Shown in pieces: positions 1,791 to 35,670 of a DNA stretch of 64,000 nucleotides. Source of the stretch: Alphaproteobacteria bacterium. GTDB taxonomy: Bacteria > Pseudomonadota > Alphaproteobacteria > JABAAW01 > JAHZMA01. How positions within the stretch are numbered: position 1 is the stretch's first letter; each line of letters begins with the position of its first letter. Both the position numbers and the translations under genes were made by a program. The DNA lies in the NCBI GenBank assembly GCA_965243045.1, contig CBDETR010000004.1, forward strand, positions 160,308-224,307, given 5' to 3'. The notes under the pieces are model-generated. The model did no database searches and was not told where the DNA came from. It was given only the letters and a program-made list of their open reading frames with translations.

Positions 1791-3239
1791 ATGGACTTCA
1801 AAAAATCTCAATTTTTTAAAACTGATTGTTATATTAATGGCGAATGGGTTAAATCTGATAATGGTGCGACCATTCCCGTGCATAGCCCTGCCACAGGCGA
1901 ATTGGTTGCAGAAATTCCATCTTTGAGCAATGCCCAAATTAAACAAGCCATTGATGCCGCAGAAACTGCCTTGCCTGAATGGCGCGCAAAAACAGGCAAA
2001 GAACGCGCGAATCTTATGAGAAAATGGTATCAAATCCTGATGGATAATCAAGAAGAATTGGCACAAATTTTATCGGGCGAAATGGGCAAACCTATTACCG
2101 AAGCACGTGGCGAAATTGCCTATGGTGCCAGCTTCATTGAATGGTTTGCAGAAGAAGCCAAGCGCATTTATGGCGAAACAATTCCCGGTCATATGGCGGA
2201 TAAACGCCTTATGGTTATTCGCCAACCCATTGGCGTTACCGCTGCAATCACACCATGGAATTTTCCCAATGCGATGGTCACGCGCAAATGCGCTCCTGCT
2301 TTGGCGGCGGGCTGTACGATGGTATTGCGTCCTGCGCGCGAAACGCCATTTTCAGCATTCGCCATTGCTCATGCGGCACATTTAGCAGGTATCCCTAAAG
2401 GCGTATTCAGCGTTGTGATGGGTAATTCTGCGGAAGTTGGTTTAGAATTTTGCACCAATCCTATTGTGAAGAAATTATCCTTTACAGGCTCTACAGAAGT
2501 GGGGCGGATATTGTTCAAACAATCGGCAGATAATATTCAAAAATTATCGCTAGAATTGGGTGGCAATGCACCCTTTATCGTGTTTGATGATGCTGATTTG
2601 GATGCGGCTGTGGAAGGTGCGATGCTTTCTAAATTTCGCAATGCGGGGCAAACATGCGTATGCGCCAATCGCTTTTATGTACAAGAAGGCGTGTATGATG
2701 CCTTTGCCGATAAATTAAAAATTCGCACAGAACAATTACATATCGGTGCAGCAGATGATGCAAAAAGTCAGCAAGGTCCGTTGATTAACGCAAATGCGGT
2801 TCTCAAGGTGAAAGACCATATTCAAGATGCTGTTTCCAAAGGTGCAGAGATTATAACTGGCGGGGAATCGCATCAGCAAGGTACAAATTATTTTCACCCT
2901 ACAATCTTAAAACATGTAACGGCAGAAATGAAAATAGCCACCGAAGAAACATTTGGACCTTTGGCACCTTTGTTCAAATTTAAGGATGAAGCGGATGTTA
3001 TTAAACAAGCCAACAATACCATTTTCGGACTGGCAAGCTATTTCTATGCAAAAGATTTAAGCCGTGTATTCCGCGTGGCTGAATCATTAGAATATGGCAT
3101 GGTGGGCGTGAATACGGGTATTATTTCCACTGAAGTGGCACCATTTGGTGGTGTTAAACAATCGGGGTTAGGGCGCGAAGGCTCACGGCACGGCATTGAA
3201 GATTACATGGAATTAAAATATATTTGCATATCAATTTAA
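1791..3239 (+). CDS. gabD: succinate-semialdehyde dehydrogenase-like ALDH (GabD-like)
   Basis: 482 aa. The N-terminus (YINGEWV...SNAQIKQAIDAAETALPEWRAKTGKERANLMRKWYQILMDNQEELAQI) and LELGGNAPFIVFDDADLDAAVEGAMLSKFRNAGQTCVCANR are typical of SSADH/GabD. Confidence 0.75.
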   Translation: MDFKKSQFFKTDCYINGEWVKSDNGATIPVHSPATGELVAEIPSLSNAQIKQAIDAAETALPEWRAKTGKERANLMRKWYQILMDNQEELAQILSGEMGKPITEARGEIAYGASFIEWFAEEAKRIYGETIPGHMADKRLMVIRQPIGVTAAITPWNFPNAMVTRKCAPALAAGCTMVLRPARETPFSAFAIAHAAHLAGIPKGVFSVVMGNSAEVGLEFCTNPIVKKLSFTGSTEVGRILFKQSADNIQKLSLELGGNAPFIVFDDADLDAAVEGAMLSKFRNAGQTCVCANRFYVQEGVYDAFADKLKIRTEQLHIGAADDAKSQQGPLINANAVLKVKDHIQDAVSKGAEIITGGESHQQGTNYFHPTILKHVTAEMKIATEETFGPLAPLFKFKDEADVIKQANNTIFGLASYFYAKDLSRVFRVAESLEYGMVGVNTGIISTEVAPFGGVKQSGLGREGSRHGIEDYMELKYICISI

Positions 3240-3242
3240 AAA

Positions 3243-3316
3243 TCGGAGTGGCAGGATTTGAACCTGCGATCTCTCGGCCCCCAGCCGAACGCTCTACCAA
3301 ACTAAGCCACACTCCG
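3243..3316 (-). tRNA. tRNA-Pro (anticodon GGG)
   Basis: The reverse complement folds as a cloverleaf: acceptor CGGAGTG/CACTCCG with C1-G72 (typical of tRNA-Pro), D arm GCTTAGTTTGGTAGAGC, anticodon stem TTCGG/CCGAG with loop CTGGGGG, T arm GCAGGTTCAAATCCTGC, discriminator A. CCA is not encoded. Confidence 0.85.
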
Positions 3317-3325
3317 CGCATGCCT

Positions 3326-3356
3326 CAATCTATGAAAGCAAACCTTAAATTGCAAG
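3326..3356. repeat. 31-bp perfect direct repeat copy 1 (caatctatgaaagcaaaccttaaattgcaag); contains a promoter-like TTGCAA-17-TAGATT on the minus strand, 10 bp upstream of the tRNA-Pro 5' end
   Basis: An identical 31-mer occurs at 4155-4185. The hexamers were read on the reverse complement. Confidence 0.8.
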
Positions 3357-3385
3357 TAAAAATGACTTCACACTATCAACATGTA

Positions 3386-4117
3386 TCAATTATTTTTTCT
3401 TGCAACAAACATGATGGATACACCAAATGGAAGTCTTAAATATTTGAGTAATATTCTTTCCATCGAGAATATTTTATAAAAAAGGTAACCGAGCAACCTG
3501 TTAGGCATTTTTGCATATTCAACTTTTTTGCCAAGAAGCGTATGAAATGTTCTAAGGGCAAAAATTAACGGAAATAAAAAGAAATCAAAATAACTCTTTT
3601 TTAAGATTGTTAAATTTTCTTGCTGGGCAATCGTAACCAACTCCTTAACCACATATCTTCTTTTATGATGGTTGATAACATCATGATGAGACCATAAAAA
3701 TTGATAGGCTGGCACTGTTAAAATAAAATATCCATTTTTTTTAAGGTATTTTTTTAAGCAACTTATTGTTTCTTCATCTTCTTCTATATGCTCTAGCACA
3801 TCAAACATCGCAATAACATCAAATTCTTCTGCTTTTAATGGTGGCAATTTTTTCGGCAAGTAACAAGATTCCACCTGTATTTTTTTTGTTTCTTTAATAT
3901 ATTTTCTAGCAAATTCATTTGGCTCTAATCCAACAACCTCACCAAATTCAGCCAACATATCTAAATTACCCCCAGTGCCGCAGCCCACTTCCAAGATTTT
4001 AGCATTGTTAGGTAAATTTAGTTTTTGCAACTCAGATTTGATAATTTCTCTTCTTGCCTTATACCACCAATGCGTCTTTTCTACTTCCGCCATCTCTTGA
4101 TAAACATATTCTTCCAT
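3386..4117 (-). CDS. class I SAM-dependent methyltransferase (orphan, AT-rich)
   Basis: 243 aa. Motif I is ILEVGCGTGGNLDMLAEFGEVVGLEPNE; an acidic post-I residue and motif II/III-like region FDVIAMFDVLEHIEE are present. Visibly more AT-rich than flanking genes. Confidence 0.8.
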   Translation of the reverse strand: MEEYVYQEMAEVEKTHWWYKARREIIKSELQKLNLPNNAKILEVGCGTGGNLDMLAEFGEVVGLEPNEFARKYIKETKKIQVESCYLPKKLPPLKAEEFDVIAMFDVLEHIEEDEETISCLKKYLKKNGYFILTVPAYQFLWSHHDVINHHKRRYVVKELVTIAQQENLTILKKSYFDFFLFPLIFALRTFHTLLGKKVEYAKMPNRLLGYLFYKIFSMERILLKYLRLPFGVSIMFVARKNN

Positions 4118-4154
4118 AACAGACCTTAGAATTTGATTAACTAAATAATATCAC

Positions 4155-4185
4155 CAATCTATGAAAGCAAACCTTAAATTGCAAG
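4155..4185. repeat. 31-bp perfect direct repeat copy 2, about 40 bp upstream of the methyltransferase start on the minus strand
   Basis: Identical to 3326-3356. Confidence 0.8.
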
Positions 4186-4256
4186 CAAAAAAAGCTTCCA
4201 AATTAATCATATGTTCTGTATTTTATAACTATCAAAATAGTGAATAGGATAAACGT

Positions 4257-4508
4257 ATGATTGAAATTTACACACGCCCCGGATGTGGGTTTTGCCACCG
4301 CGCCAAACGTCTTTTAGATGGCAAGGAACTCACCTATCAAGAATATAATATTTGGGAAGAAGAAGGGCGTAATGAAGAAATGCTCAAACGTTCCAATGGT
4401 GAGCGTACTGTGCCGCAAGTTTTTATCAATGATAACCATATTGGTGGCTGTGATGATTTGTTTGACTTTGATGCAAATAATGGATTTAAAGCTTTGTTGC
4501 AGGAATAA
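4257..4508 (+). CDS. grxC: glutaredoxin 3
   Basis: 83 aa with CGFC active site (YTRPGCGFCHRAKRLL), TVPQVFI and GGCDDL motifs. Confidence 0.85.
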   Translation: MIEIYTRPGCGFCHRAKRLLDGKELTYQEYNIWEEEGRNEEMLKRSNGERTVPQVFINDNHIGGCDDLFDFDANNGFKALLQE

Positions 4509-5357
4509 ATGATGGATTCATTTAACGTTGCGGTGTTGCAATATTGTGGCACAAAAGATTGGCAAACAAACCTTGATACTGTTAGCCGTTTAATTCATAA
4601 CGCGCAAGCCCATGGTGCTGAATTTATTCTGTTACCCGAATGTGCCAATAATGTTAATCTTGCGGCAAAGGCTGATGATTATTTTTCAGAGCAAGACGAC
4701 CCTTTTTTAACTGCCATGCAAAAGCTTGCACAAAGTTACACGATTATTATTTCAATCGGCTCGTTGATGCTGAAACATGAGAATGGCAAATGTGCCAATC
4801 GTGGTTTTACGATTAATGATGCTGGCAAAATTATCGCGCGTTACGATAAAATTCATTTGTTTGATGTGAATCTCACCGATAGGCAATATCGTGAATCTGA
4901 TAAATTTGCCAGTGGCAACCAAGCTATTATTGCAGAAACCGATAAGGGCAAAATTGGCATGACGATTTGTTATGATTTGCGTTTTGCCAATCTTTATACA
5001 GAGCTTGCCAAAGCAGGCGCGCTTGCGATTACCGTGCCAGCGGCTTTTACTGCCACCACTGGACGCGCCCATTGGGAAGTTTTGTTACGCGCCCGCGCTA
5101 TCGAAAATGGGGTTTATATTTTTGCCGCAGCGCAAGTGGGCACTCATGAAGATGAACGTGAAACATGGGGGCATAGCATGATTGTTGACCCGTGGGGGAA
5201 AATTATTGCGCGTGCTGAAATTGATGAAAAAAGCCGAGATGGTTCTGAATTGGGTGGTTTTACATTGGCAGAAATTAAGCCATCCATCCAAGCACGTGCG
5301 CAAAATACTATTCCACGTCTGACGCAAATCAAAGGGTTTAATCCGCCTTTAAAATAA
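4509..5357 (+). CDS. carbon-nitrogen hydrolase family protein (nitrilase/amidase superfamily)
   Basis: 282 aa with the Glu-Lys-Cys triad context (LLPEC..., KIHLFD, MTICYDLRFANLY). grxC followed by a C-N hydrolase is a conserved pair. Confidence 0.8.
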   Translation: MMDSFNVAVLQYCGTKDWQTNLDTVSRLIHNAQAHGAEFILLPECANNVNLAAKADDYFSEQDDPFLTAMQKLAQSYTIIISIGSLMLKHENGKCANRGFTINDAGKIIARYDKIHLFDVNLTDRQYRESDKFASGNQAIIAETDKGKIGMTICYDLRFANLYTELAKAGALAITVPAAFTATTGRAHWEVLLRARAIENGVYIFAAAQVGTHEDERETWGHSMIVDPWGKIIARAEIDEKSRDGSELGGFTLAEIKPSIQARAQNTIPRLTQIKGFNPPLK

Positions 5358-5372
5358 TATTTGGATAATCTT

Positions 5373-5825
5373 TTACGTACCCGTTGAGCCAAAACCTTCG
5401 ACACCACGCATCGTTACAGGTAGCTCTTCGCATAATTGAAACTCTATTGCCACATAGCGCGCAATCACCATTTGGGCAATCCGCATTTTAGGCTGAATGA
5501 TAAAATCTTGCTTGCCATGGTTAATCAATAAAACTTTAATTTCACCACGATAATCAGCATCAATCGTGCCGGGACTGTTCAAAATCGTAACGCCATACTT
5601 AAAAGCAAGCCCCGAACGCGGGCGGATTTGTGCTTCGCAATCTTGCGGTAAGGCAATCGCAAAACCTGTTGGAATTAAACAATAATCCCCTGCAGGCAGA
5701 ACCATATCATCGTCAATCGCGGCATGTAAATCGAATCCTGCCGCAAATTTACTTGCGCGCAACGGCAATGTTTCACCATGTGGCAAACGCTGAATGGGTA
5801 GTTGCAACTGAGGAAAATCAGGCAT
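5373..5825 (-). CDS. dut: dUTP diphosphatase
   Basis: 150 aa with dUTPase motifs AAGFDLHA, GLAFKYGVTILNSPGTIDADYRGEIKVLLIN, GFGSTG. Confidence 0.9.
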   Translation of the reverse strand: MPDFPQLQLPIQRLPHGETLPLRASKFAAGFDLHAAIDDDMVLPAGDYCLIPTGFAIALPQDCEAQIRPRSGLAFKYGVTILNSPGTIDADYRGEIKVLLINHGKQDFIIQPKMRIAQMVIARYVAIEFQLCEELPVTMRGVEGFGSTGT

Positions 5826-5828
5826 TTT

Positions 5829-6491
5829 TTAAGATTTTAAAGCGGTGACCAGCCCGTCTAACACACTGGTAACATCAGCAATATCCATCATTGCATCGAT
5901 GGTTTTTAAAATTCCTGTTTTTTGATAATAAGGAATAAGCGGCGCAGTTTGCTGATGAAAAATATCCAACCTATCTTTTACCGTCGTTTCATTATCATCG
6001 GCACGGCGATTAAATTCTTGATGCTGGCATGTATCACAACTATTTTCTTGCTTGGGCAAACGGAAAAAATCATTGTAAACTGTGCCACAATTTTTACAGC
6101 TAAACCGTCCCGAAATGCGCTTTACCAAAATTGCATCATCAACCTGCATTTCAATAACACTGTCTAATTTTTTCTGCATTCCTGATAACATTATATCAAG
6201 CCCTTCAGCCTGAGGAACGGTGCGCGGAAAACCATCTAAAATAAAGCCTGATTGGCAATCATCTTGCTTGAGACGCGAACCAATAATTTCTAGCATCACT
6301 GCATCAGGCATTAATTGCCCGGATTTCATAATTTCATCGGCTTGCTTGCCAAGTTGCGAACCGCTTTTCACTTCTGCGCGTAACATATCGCCAGTAGAAA
6401 GTTGCACAAGCTGATATTTTGCCTGTAAAATTTGTGCTTGCGTGCCTTTACCAACGCCGGGGGGACCTAATAATATTAAATTAACACTCAT
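5829..6491 (-). CDS. adk: adenylate kinase (with Cys4 zinc-type lid)
   Basis: 220 aa with P-loop GPPGVGKGTQA, GFILDGFPRT and LID motif CKNCGTVYNDFFRLPKQENSCDTC. Confidence 0.9.
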   Translation of the reverse strand: MSVNLILLGPPGVGKGTQAQILQAKYQLVQLSTGDMLRAEVKSGSQLGKQADEIMKSGQLMPDAVMLEIIGSRLKQDDCQSGFILDGFPRTVPQAEGLDIMLSGMQKKLDSVIEMQVDDAILVKRISGRFSCKNCGTVYNDFFRLPKQENSCDTCQHQEFNRRADDNETTVKDRLDIFHQQTAPLIPYYQKTGILKTIDAMMDIADVTSVLDGLVTALKS

Positions 6492-7853: not shown

Positions 7854-8675
7854 TTAATCGTCTACTTTTTTGTTGTTGGCTTTTTGGTTGTTGCCTTTGT
7901 TGTCACTGGTTTTGTTGTCGCTGGTTTTTTTGTCACTGGTTTTTTTGTGATTGGCTTTGTTGCTGTTTCTTTTTTCACCGTTTTTACAGTTTCTTTTTTC
8001 AGTTTTTGCCGTCTCAGTTTTTGCCGTCTCAGTTTTTGCCGTCTCAGTTTTTGCCGTCTCAGTTTTTGATAGCGTTTTCTTTGCAGGAGTCGCATCAGCT
8101 GTTTTAACTGCTTCTGTTTTTACTGTTTCTGCTTTAACAGGTGTTGCTGAAGCCGGCTTTGCTTTCTTAACTTTTTTCGTAGTTGCTTCTTTTGTTACTT
8201 TAACAGGCGGGGTGCTTTCTAGCAAAGTCACTTTACCACCGGCTTTTTCAACCAACGCAATCGCAGATTTTGATGCTGCCGTTACCGTAATATTTAGTTT
8301 TGCTTTCAACTCACCTTTTGCAAGTAGGCGCAAATTACCTTCTCGGTTGCTAACCAAACCTGATAATTGCAATTCCTGCCGTGTAATATCTTTACTTAAA
8401 TCAATTCTACCCTCATCACTGGCGGTTTGAATTCTACCTAAATTGATAACAACCCATTTTTTCCGAGAAAGGCTGTTAAATCCACGCTTTGGCAAACGTT
8501 GATAAATAGGCATTTGCCCACCTTCAAAACCTTTGATGGATACGCCAGAACGAGACTTTTGCCCCTTCATTCCGCGCCCAGCAGTTTTACCCTTGCCAGT
8601 ACCTATACCGCGTCCAACCCGCATCGCATCACGAGTTGCACCTTTATTATCACGAATTTCATTCAGCTTCATCAC
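7854..8675 (-). CDS. rplO: 50S ribosomal protein L15 with ~110-aa lysine-rich repetitive C-terminal extension
   Basis: N-terminal ~155 aa is a canonical L15 ([24 protein letters not shown]...). The same ORF continues into the tail [44 protein letters not shown]...(TETAK)x4...(KTSDN)x3...NNKKVDD. Confidence 0.9.
8000..8059. repeat. perfect 15-bp tandem repeat x4 (cagtttttgccgtct) encoding the TETAK repeats of the L15 tail
   Basis: Four identical contiguous units with partial copies on both sides. An imperfect 15-bp periodicity also runs through 7908-7967 (KTSDN repeats). Confidence 0.9.
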
Positions 8676-34973: not shown

Positions 34974-35670
34974 GGAAAGTTTCTACTTTACCTTTGCCAG
35001 TTTCCAGTAAAAGACAGCCATAATCATCAATGCCCCGATAAATACCATCTACCCAACGGTTCGCCGTAATTTGCAAGCGCATCATTTTACCAACCCCGTA
35101 AAGATGAGGGCGCAACTCTTTAATCACTGCTTGAAAACCCTTCGCATGCCAAAATTGCCACCAAACATCATACTCACTCAAAAAACGGCTAATCACATTA
35201 AAATCATTGGTATTACGCGCACCTTCTGCCTGCATGGAGGTTGCGGGAAAATAAGTTTTCATGGGTGCTGAGTTAATATTAACCCCTATCCCCATAATCA
35301 ACACAAGCTCGCCTGAATCTTGATTGCTTTCAATTAAAATACCAGCGGTTTTCTTCTCCCGAATAAGAACATCATTGGGCCATTTATAACTAACATCTTC
35401 AGGGTCATCTAAGTGCCATGAAATCACTGAACTTAAAACGGCAACCGCAAAAGGCGAATATTGTGGCAATGATGCACGGGTTAAATCCGGATGAATAATC
35501 ATAGAAAAATATAAATTACCTTCAGGCGATTCCCACGACCTACCTAATCTGCCACGCCCTGCCGTCTGTTTTTTTGCCCAGATGACACTGCCATGTTCTA
35601 ACGGAGATTTTTGTAAAAGCCTTTTTGCTTCTTCATTAGTAGAATCAATTTCATCCAACTCTAAAAACAT
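34948..35670 (-). CDS. birA: biotin--[acetyl-CoA-carboxylase] ligase
   Basis: 240 aa with QTAGRGRLGRSWESPEGNLYFS and KWPNDVL motifs. No N-terminal HTH domain (group I BirA). Confidence 0.8.
   Translation of the reverse strand: MFLELDEIDSTNEEAKRLLQKSPLEHGSVIWAKKQTAGRGRLGRSWESPEGNLYFSMIIHPDLTRASLPQYSPFAVAVLSSVISWHLDDPEDVSYKWPNDVLIREKKTAGILIESNQDSGELVLIMGIGVNINSAPMKTYFPATSMQAEGARNTNDFNVISRFLSEYDVWWQFWHAKGFQAVIKELRPHLYGVGKMMRLQITANRWVDGIYRGIDDYGCLLLETGKGKVETFHAGDVFML

Follow-up and report, generated by a model that had tools for sequence, protein, structure and literature searches.

In a stretch of 64 kb of alphaproteobacterial DNA (the window, which here means the whole stretch that was analysed, from a genome of 1.93 Mb), a gene for a class I SAM-dependent methyltransferase lies between the two copies of a direct repeat, one of which is located just upstream of tRNA-Pro(GGG) (Table 1). 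The methyltransferase is the sole ORF between the repeats, and its 5'UTR contains a weak Shine-Dalgarno sequence (TAAGG) 6 nt ahead of the ATG. tRNA-Pro(GGG) is the sole tRNA and also the sole Rfam match of the window. At the 3' end of the tRNA, the stop codon of a gabD-like gene is only 3 nt away, and on the other side of the locus the divergent grxC gene is a conserved neighbour, which anchors the synteny with related genomes (L001, L083 and L089; see below). The neighbouring genes include two aldehyde dehydrogenase genes, grxC, a CN-hydrolase gene, dut, adk and secY. No integrase, transposase or recombinase gene was found among these neighbours or between the repeats, in agreement with the initial annotation of this DNA, which had noted the lack of an integrase or transposase.

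Table 1. Features of the locus, with positions and strands as read in the window
Feature	Position	Strand	Details
Succinate-semialdehyde dehydrogenase, gabD-like	1791..3239	+	NCBIfam TIGR01780, 707 bits
tRNA-Pro(GGG)	3243..3316	-	ARAGORN; Rfam tRNA, 64.8 bits
Repeat copy 1	3326..3369 (core 3326-3356)	-	TTGCAA 3350-3355, 17 nt, TAGATT 3327-3332
Class I SAM-dependent methyltransferase	3386..4117	-	243 aa (732 nt); Methyltransf_23/11/12
Putative methyltransferase 5'UTR	4118..4154	-	sequence and pairwise alignment
Repeat copy 2	4155..4198 (core 4155-4185)	-	-35-like box 4179-4184, -10-like box 4156-4161
Second promoter-like site, TTGATA-18-TATGAT	4206..4235	-	10/12, promoter scan
grxC (glutaredoxin 3)	4257..4508	+	TIGR02181, 7.5e-30

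The repeat

The 31-mer CAATCTATGAAAGCAAACCTTAAATTGCAAG is present in two exact copies, which lie 829 nt apart in direct orientation and bracket the 243-aa minus-strand methyltransferase just as described initially; a third copy was not found in the 64-kb window, even with up to three mismatches allowed. By chance no such repeat is expected (0 matches in 100 shuffles). Ungapped extension results in a repeat of 44 nt with 91% identity, in which the four mismatches are confined to a 13-nt part ahead of the -35-like box, the 31-nt core being perfect; the probability of this clustering is P = 0.005 to 0.08, varying with the number of mutational events assumed. A collinear 11-mer (ATGTTGATAGT at 3372-3382 and ATTTTGATAGT at 4228-4238) might represent an extension of the repeat with a 27-nt indel, and was not used because its chance probability, by a rough estimate, is about 0.08.

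Read on the minus strand, each copy consists of a T-rich stretch, CTTGCAA, 17 nt and TAGATTG. The right boundary of the repeat is located 1 nt past the -10-like box, and the boundaries nearly coincide with those of a minimal promoter. Copy 1 lies upstream of tRNA-Pro, as the initial annotation had it, at a distance of 9 nt from the 5' end of the tRNA rather than the 10 bp given there; copy 2 lies 37 nt upstream of the methyltransferase start codon, which agrees with the earlier figure of about 40 bp. The repeat contains no tRNA sequence and no palindrome of the REP type, it has no match among the Rfam families, and no microhomology is evident at the boundaries of the duplication. In the JGI metagenome collection neither the exact 31-mer nor a degenerate pattern spanning the promoter and tRNA-Pro was found, and the clade of the window appears to be absent from this collection. 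A third match to TTGCAA-N19-TAGAT at 35047-35076 of the window lies within an ORF and was dismissed as chance.

The methyltransferase gene and the locus in related genomes

The methyltransferase matches PF13489 (Methyltransf_23) with 63.8 bits, at a cut-off of 27. Its motif I, VGCGTGGN, represents the GxGxG SAM-binding motif, in which 39 homologs all have G45, G47 and G49. An N-terminal HWW..RR motif is invariant in the subfamily, and a helical C-terminal extension is subfamily-specific as well. A seven-stranded, Rossmann-like fold is predicted with a pLDDT of 94.3. None of the named equivalogs UbiG, BioC, CmoB and MetW reaches the NCBIfam cut-off (the best, UbiG, with 38.4 bits vs 103; every other match stays even further under its cut-off), and the best sequence match in the PDB is a putative methyltransferase (E = 9e-13), with no close characterised member; a substrate could not be assigned. 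Homologs with an identity of about 45% number in the thousands and are found in cyanobacteria and proteobacteria. No consistent genomic context was seen among distant homologs (one lies by hscB-hscA, another by glycosyltransferases), linkage to a tRNA was not seen for homologs elsewhere, and viral contigs scanned with the methyltransferase contained no relatives.

Computation of GC and GC3 bore out the earlier impression that the gene is more AT-rich than its flanks. With a GC content of 0.318 it is the lowest among the 65 ORFs of the window (mean 0.408, sd 0.030), its GC3 is 0.279 compared to a mean of 0.350 (sd 0.031), and much of the deficit resides at codon positions 1 and 2. The ortholog in L001 is equally AT-rich (GC 0.314, GC3 0.259; neighbouring genes 0.40-0.49). 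The next-closest homolog after that of L001 shows 53% identity and is located on a contig with 33% GC, where its composition is native, which fits an origin of the methyltransferase in a lower-GC lineage.

The window genome represents an isolated alphaproteobacterial lineage. A gene-position index queried for exact matches to the methyltransferase and GrxC of the window contained neither. Relatives were found by a search with Adk in ENA, NCBI and Logan assemblies, and the closest Adk match in the databases shows 81% identity. In a search of species-representative genomes with SecY, the best among the matches listed reached 72-73%, and the local gene order dut-grxC is absent from the 80 SecY-match loci listed, which belong to distant alphaproteobacteria. 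Three assemblies were left out of the locus comparison, two that end before the locus (L084, L093) and one outside the clade (L087). The contigs of the relatives all carry rpl/rps genes, secY, adk and dut, and then grxC in the reverse orientation. In L083 and L086 (Adk ~70%), grxC and tRNA-Pro(GGG) are separated by about 100 nt, in L089 (Adk 81%) by 105 nt, and the methyltransferase is absent from all three. In L001/L002 (Adk 81%, SecY 93%), grxC is followed by about 130 nt, a methyltransferase with 64% identity to that of the window, 12 nt (compared to 69 nt in the window, with both genes on the same strand) and tRNA-Pro(GGG); here there is a single promoter-like element, TTGCAT-16-TATAAT. 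The tRNA-Pro orthologs of L001, L083, L086 and L089 all end in CCGACCA; in the window the 3' CCA is not encoded and TTTTT follows directly. The content on the 3' side of the tRNA is lineage-specific, with other genes found there in the relatives.

The sequences indicate that L001 and L089 are sisters, in a tree ((L001, L089), window) with L083 and L086 outside, because their DNA is 85.6% identical over secY-adk, their tRNA-Pro sequences are the same and both have, downstream, a type IIG restriction-modification gene and a tRNA-Ser; the DNA of the window is 77-80% identical to that of either. The methyltransferase is thus present in L001 and the window and absent from L089, L083 and L086.

In the outgroups, the region upstream of tRNA-Pro consists of GATTTTT(A/G)CTTGCAA, 19 nt, (C)CATAGATA and 7 nt before the tRNA, and it matches the core of the repeat (GATTTTT(A/G)CTTGCAA...CCATAGATA, 7 nt ahead of the tRNA). 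The segment of the window from copy 1 to the tRNA aligns box for box with the corresponding segment of L083 and L086 (ATTTTTACTTGCAA...CATAGAT...CGGAG), and for this reason copy 1 can be said to keep the ancestral place with respect to the tRNA. With respect to grxC it is copy 2 that is in the ancestral place, and this copy is orthologous to the single element found upstream of the methyltransferase in L001 (GCGTTTTTCTGCTTGCAT, 16 nt, TATAAT). The intergenic regions between grxC and the methyltransferase of L001 and the window align end to end, a blastn alignment of the two is collinear and uninterrupted from grxC through the intergenic region into the methyltransferase, and the two 5'UTRs, which are partly alignable, have a TAGTT(A/T)ATCAA block in common. 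The repeat accordingly represents the ancestral, promoter-like region upstream of tRNA-Pro. As the boxes of the outgroups match the repeat core and the site is empty in L083, L086 and L089, where grxC lies next to tRNA-Pro, the methyltransferase is best explained as an insertion between this promoter-like region and the tRNA. The view that the gene is an insertion thus gains support from the relatives, and the expression "duplicated tRNA promoter" used in the initial annotation is a fair one, the repeat being homologous to a conserved region upstream of tRNA-Pro.

Proposed history of the insertion and of the repeat

TTGCAA-17-TAGATT, proposed earlier as a plausible sigma70 promoter, is indeed present in each copy; it matches the sigma-70 consensus (TTGACA / TATAAT) at 4+4, that is 8 of 12 positions, which is below the cut-off of 9/12 of our promoter scan, and was hence not reported by the scan. 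The spacing of 17 nt in the window is ideal (criterion 16-18 nt), that of 19 nt in the outgroups is long for sigma-70. The best reading of the repeat is a promoter, and we infer activity because the boxes have been kept across lineages with saturated synonymous sites, because in the window, L083 and L086 their distance to the mature 5' end of tRNA-Pro is 7-10 nt despite diverged flanks and spacers, and because a similar layout (T-rich / CTTGyAA / ~16 nt / TATA-like) is found upstream of the tRNA-Ser of L001. CTTGCAA and CATAGAT are kept upstream of tRNA-Pro even in the outgroups, whose Adk is only ~70% identical. The alternative that the repeat is not a promoter and represents a dispersed REP-like element, a binding site for a regulator or the att site of a recombinase would be in line with the weak sigma-70 match under the scan threshold. 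We regard it as hardly probable, however: no more than two copies occur in the 64 kb at up to three mismatches, there is no palindrome of the REP type, no exact copy in the JGI collection and no Rfam match, the boxes have kept their place 7-10 nt upstream of the outgroup tRNA-Pro, no recombinase gene is found nearby, and the repeat lacks tRNA sequence, unlike att sites that target tRNAs. The second promoter-like site of the window, which the scan did report, lies upstream of copy 2 and points toward the methyltransferase; sites of this kind are as numerous in the region as expected by chance. Between 3000 and 4600, including the interval between the methyltransferase and the tRNA, no terminator-like site was found.

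Between the window and L001, protein identity is 64% for the methyltransferase, 64% for GrxC, 65% for Dut and 67% for L15; pS is 0.52-0.70 in the six genes compared, that is, saturated, and the dN/dS of the methyltransferase of 0.13 indicates purifying selection. This co-divergence with GrxC, Dut and L15, together with the saturated synonymous sites, the low dN/dS and the shared junction, indicates that the methyltransferase is functional and was located at this junction already in the common ancestor of the window and L001, and that its arrival was not recent. The initial view of an orphan gene acquired horizontally, if taken to mean a recent event, is not supported in the light of the ortholog of L001, which sits at the same junction, has diverged to the same degree as grxC and dut, shows saturated synonymous sites, and has evolved under purifying selection.

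The promoter spacer differs in sequence and length among the lineages (17 nt in the window, 16 nt in L001, 19 nt in the outgroups), and that of L089 has only AGGTTTGCTT in common with the window; in the two window copies it is identical at 17 out of 17 positions. Given two identical window spacers in an element whose spacer otherwise differs from lineage to lineage, the insertion appears to be far older than the duplication, or at least than the last homogenisation of the copies. This identity and the single promoter of L001 make it unlikely that the duplication was a by-product of integration, as one of two initial proposals had it. The other proposal, in which a copy of the tRNA promoter now drives the gene, comes close to the data, except that the gene lies behind the promoter position on the grxC side, which is the original one, and that the tRNA-proximal copy looks like a later addition.

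We favour, with moderate confidence, a history in which an old insertion captured the promoter of the tRNA and the promoter was duplicated later in the window lineage. In the common ancestor of the window and L001/L089, a low-GC methyltransferase gene would have entered between tRNA-Pro and its promoter; the tRNA promoter, divergent to grxC, would have come to lie ahead of the methyltransferase, and tRNA-Pro would have become the downstream gene of a mixed mRNA-tRNA unit, a state that L001 would have kept. Much later, some 44 nt including the promoter (the T-rich upstream stretch, -35, spacer and -10) would have been copied, in the window lineage alone, into the interval between the methyltransferase stop codon and the tRNA. 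Candidate mechanisms for this step are template switching, or tandem duplication of promoter and gene with subsequent loss of the second gene. Transcription from copy 2 would then serve the methyltransferase and probably continue into the tRNA, as no terminator-like site lies between them, and copy 1 would provide the tRNA with a start of its own, 2-4 nt ahead of the mature 5' end. L089 would have lost the methyltransferase, most simply by a later deletion. Parsimony is equal for a gain of copy 1 in the window and its loss in L001, and also for one gain of the gene plus a loss in L089 and for two gains. A counterpoint to this two-step history is the restriction of the mismatches to the flank, a sign that the duplication might be older and that selection or gene conversion preserved its core.

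As an alternative, insertion and duplication could have been one and the same event in the common ancestor, for example a Campbell-type single crossover of a circle with the methyltransferase and a copy of the promoter, or the repair of a long staggered break. In this case the original order promoter-gene-promoter-tRNA would survive in the window, with cores held identical by gene conversion or selection; L001 would later have deleted the proximal copy, and in L089 recombination between the repeats would have removed the gene, exactly restoring promoter and tRNA. Such a single event accounts naturally for all three states (two repeats, one repeat, empty site) and for a perfect core with mismatches in the flank only. 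In addition, the leader of L089, TTTACATCAAG, resembles the TAGTT(A/T)ATCAA block of the 5'UTR and is absent from the outgroups, which hints at a former gene, although the resemblance extends over about 10 nt and could be chance. We nevertheless consider this alternative rather unlikely, taking into account that synonymous sites have become saturated since the split of the window and L001 and that the spacer has changed in every lineage; it requires repeated conversion of tracts of 31-44 nt that lie 829 nt apart, a process that is inefficient in bacteria.

The gene might also have travelled as a mobile cassette, integrase-free or mobilised in trans, which entered the window and L001 separately or was exchanged via the flanking promoter and tRNA. 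The presence/absence pattern requires two events under any scenario, and the methyltransferase is low in GC in both hosts, with a 53% homolog that is native on a 33%-GC contig. In contrast, the genes of the window and L001 are each other's closest relatives (64% vs 53% or less), and their divergence, which equals that of grxC and dut, the shared junction and the alignable 5'UTR are what vertical descent predicts; moreover, homologs elsewhere are not linked to tRNAs, viral relatives were not found and a recombinase is absent nearby. Mobility of this kind is thus improbable. A more specific version, in which the 31-44-nt promoter copies of an integrase-free cassette recombine and loop out the gene together with one promoter copy, is in our view very doubtful; it would leave behind an intact promoter and tRNA, the state of L089. 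Equally doubtful is its continuation, in which the circle would re-enter relatives by a single crossover in the tRNA-Pro promoter. If true, a housekeeping promoter would serve both as attachment site and as expression signal of a minimal mobile gene.

Relation to known arrangements

In the literature searched we found no description of such an arrangement. Under the favoured history of insertion and later promoter duplication, the locus shares features with several known ones. Mixed transcription units of mRNA and tRNA exist in bacteria, for example the thrU-tyrU-glyT-thrT-tufB operon of E. coli. Similar to such units, the protein gene and the tRNA are on one strand with no terminator between them, and in L001 they are 12 nt apart behind one promoter. 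In contrast to thrU-tyrU-glyT-thrT-tufB, the protein gene is located upstream of the tRNA and would have been inserted secondarily into what was once a monocistronic tRNA unit; unlike in mixed units, a second promoter copy precedes the tRNA in the window, and we infer co-transcription here.

With tRNA-linked islands flanked by attL and attR, the locus shares a gene of deviant composition next to a tRNA, direct repeats and an empty site in relatives (L083, L086 and L089). However, classical islands are found at the 3' end of the tRNA, their repeats are copies of the 3' segment of the tRNA, and a tyrosine or serine integrase is either encoded by them or required, whereas here the 5' side is occupied, the repeat is a promoter-like sequence without tRNA bases, the insert is a single gene of 732 nt, and an integrase is absent. 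CIMEs, that is att-flanked remnants without an integrase of their own, have been described in Streptococcus thermophilus. They resemble the locus in the small size of the segment, the direct repeats, the lack of a recombinase and the occurrence of occupied and empty sites among relatives, but a CIME is bounded by genuine att sites that belong to a known integrative element, whereas the repeats of the locus are homologous to a native promoter and no partner element is known. An insertion of an IS element or transposon was considered and rejected, as there is no transposase, terminal inverted repeats are missing inside the direct repeats, and the repeat measures 31-44 nt compared to the 2-14 bp of a target duplication.

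The locus also resembles segmental promoter duplications, as two direct copies of a short non-coding segment with -35 and -10 boxes would each serve one of two neighbouring transcription units, although in contrast to tandem promoters the copies are 829 nt apart, and the boundaries lie near those of a minimal promoter. The enzyme itself resembles other Methyltransf_23 and class I methyltransferases in its GxGxG motif, its predicted Rossmann-like fold and its thousands of homologs at ~45% identity. The locus is best filed as a small promoter duplication after capture of a promoter by an inserted gene, which is a known kind of event.

The locus would represent ordinary genome evolution with unusually clear intermediates, and neither a new molecular system nor a new element. 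It illustrates clearly how an inserted gene can come to use a housekeeping promoter: a gene placed between a tRNA and its promoter may be expressed at once, and the displaced tRNA can regain a promoter by a duplication of a few tens of bases. The relatives of the window keep the stages of this process, from the empty site via the insert with one promoter to the insert with two, and this series could be used as a worked example for the evolution of operons and promoters, in which two identical promoters are found in different contexts.

Promoter-like sites and extent of the duplication

Directly upstream of repeat copy 2, one of the two promoter-like repeats bracketing the methyltransferase gene, lies a further promoter-like site, TTGATA-18-TATGAT, which matches at 10/12 positions and outscores the copy-2 element. 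Its TTGATAGT box was found again 3 nt upstream of copy 1 (compared segments: ATGTTGATAGT near copy 1 versus ATTTTGATAGT near copy 2). The originally duplicated segment may have been approximately 85 nt long, with a 27-nt deletion afterwards, or the TTGATAGT box may have recurred by chance. The TTGCAA-N19-TAGAT pattern itself was observed three times in the window (0.48 expected), two of these matches being the repeat copies themselves; the third, located within a 240-aa ORF, is probably due to chance.

Positions of features in the window and in the compared contigs
Feature	Sequence	Position	Strand
Promoter-like site TTGATA-18-TATGAT	window	4206-4235	minus
Compared segment near copy 1	window	3372-3382	
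Compared segment near copy 2	window	4228-4238	
Third TTGCAA-N19-TAGAT match	window	35047-35076	minus
240-aa ORF	window	34948-35670	
Gene order after adk	window	4509-6491	
L15 gene	window	7854-8675	minus
grxC-like DNA	L086	9295-9560	
Type IIG restriction-modification ORF as called	L089	4208-5986	
tRNA-Ser(GGA)	L089	5896-5985	opposite to the ORF
tRNA-Pro 3' end	window	3236-3246	
tRNA-Pro 3' end	L001	8940-8950	
tRNA-Pro 3' end	L083	12491-12500	
tRNA-Pro 3' end	L086	9730-9740	
tRNA-Pro 3' end	L089	4195-4205	

Gene order and ribosomal protein L15 in the clade

In the window, the sister contigs L001 and L089 and the outgroups L083 and L086, adk is followed by dut, CN-hydrolase and grxC, with a TbpB_B_D-domain gene in place of CN-hydrolase in L001 and CN-hydrolase absent in L089; L087, from outside the clade, and other alphaproteobacteria instead show the canonical rpsM-rpsK-rpoA-rplQ after adk. 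At the expected grxC position of L086 the called ORF comprises only 44 aa while the DNA is still grxC-like, possible explanations being a frameshift, a pseudogene or an error in the long-read assembly (contig coverage 4x).

The window L15 (273 aa) carries a long low-complexity Lys/Thr/Glu/Ala C-terminal tail containing KTETA and KTSDN repeats. L15 is also long in L001, L083, L084 and L086 (237-305 aa), and that of the more distant L087 measures 163 aa. The tail therefore appears to be an extension specific to this clade.

The 3' side of tRNA-Pro

Only the window tRNA-Pro(GGG) lacks an encoded 3' CCA, reading …CTCCGA followed by TTTTTAAA, and just 3 nt separate it from the gabD stop codon; CCGACCA is encoded in all four relatives. 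The neighbours on this side differ from lineage to lineage: the window has gabD and an aldehyde dehydrogenase gene, L001 and L089 share a block consisting of a type IIG restriction-modification gene and tRNA-Ser (77% DNA identity between the two), L083 has a flavodoxin-like gene, and L086 has a Pyr_excise gene. In L089, the restriction-modification ORF overlaps tRNA-Ser(GGA) by about 90 nt, and its start was thus probably over-called. The CCA missing in the window only and the differing neighbouring genes argue for a separate hot spot of gene exchange on the 3' side of tRNA-Pro, with a junction falling exactly on the discriminator base.
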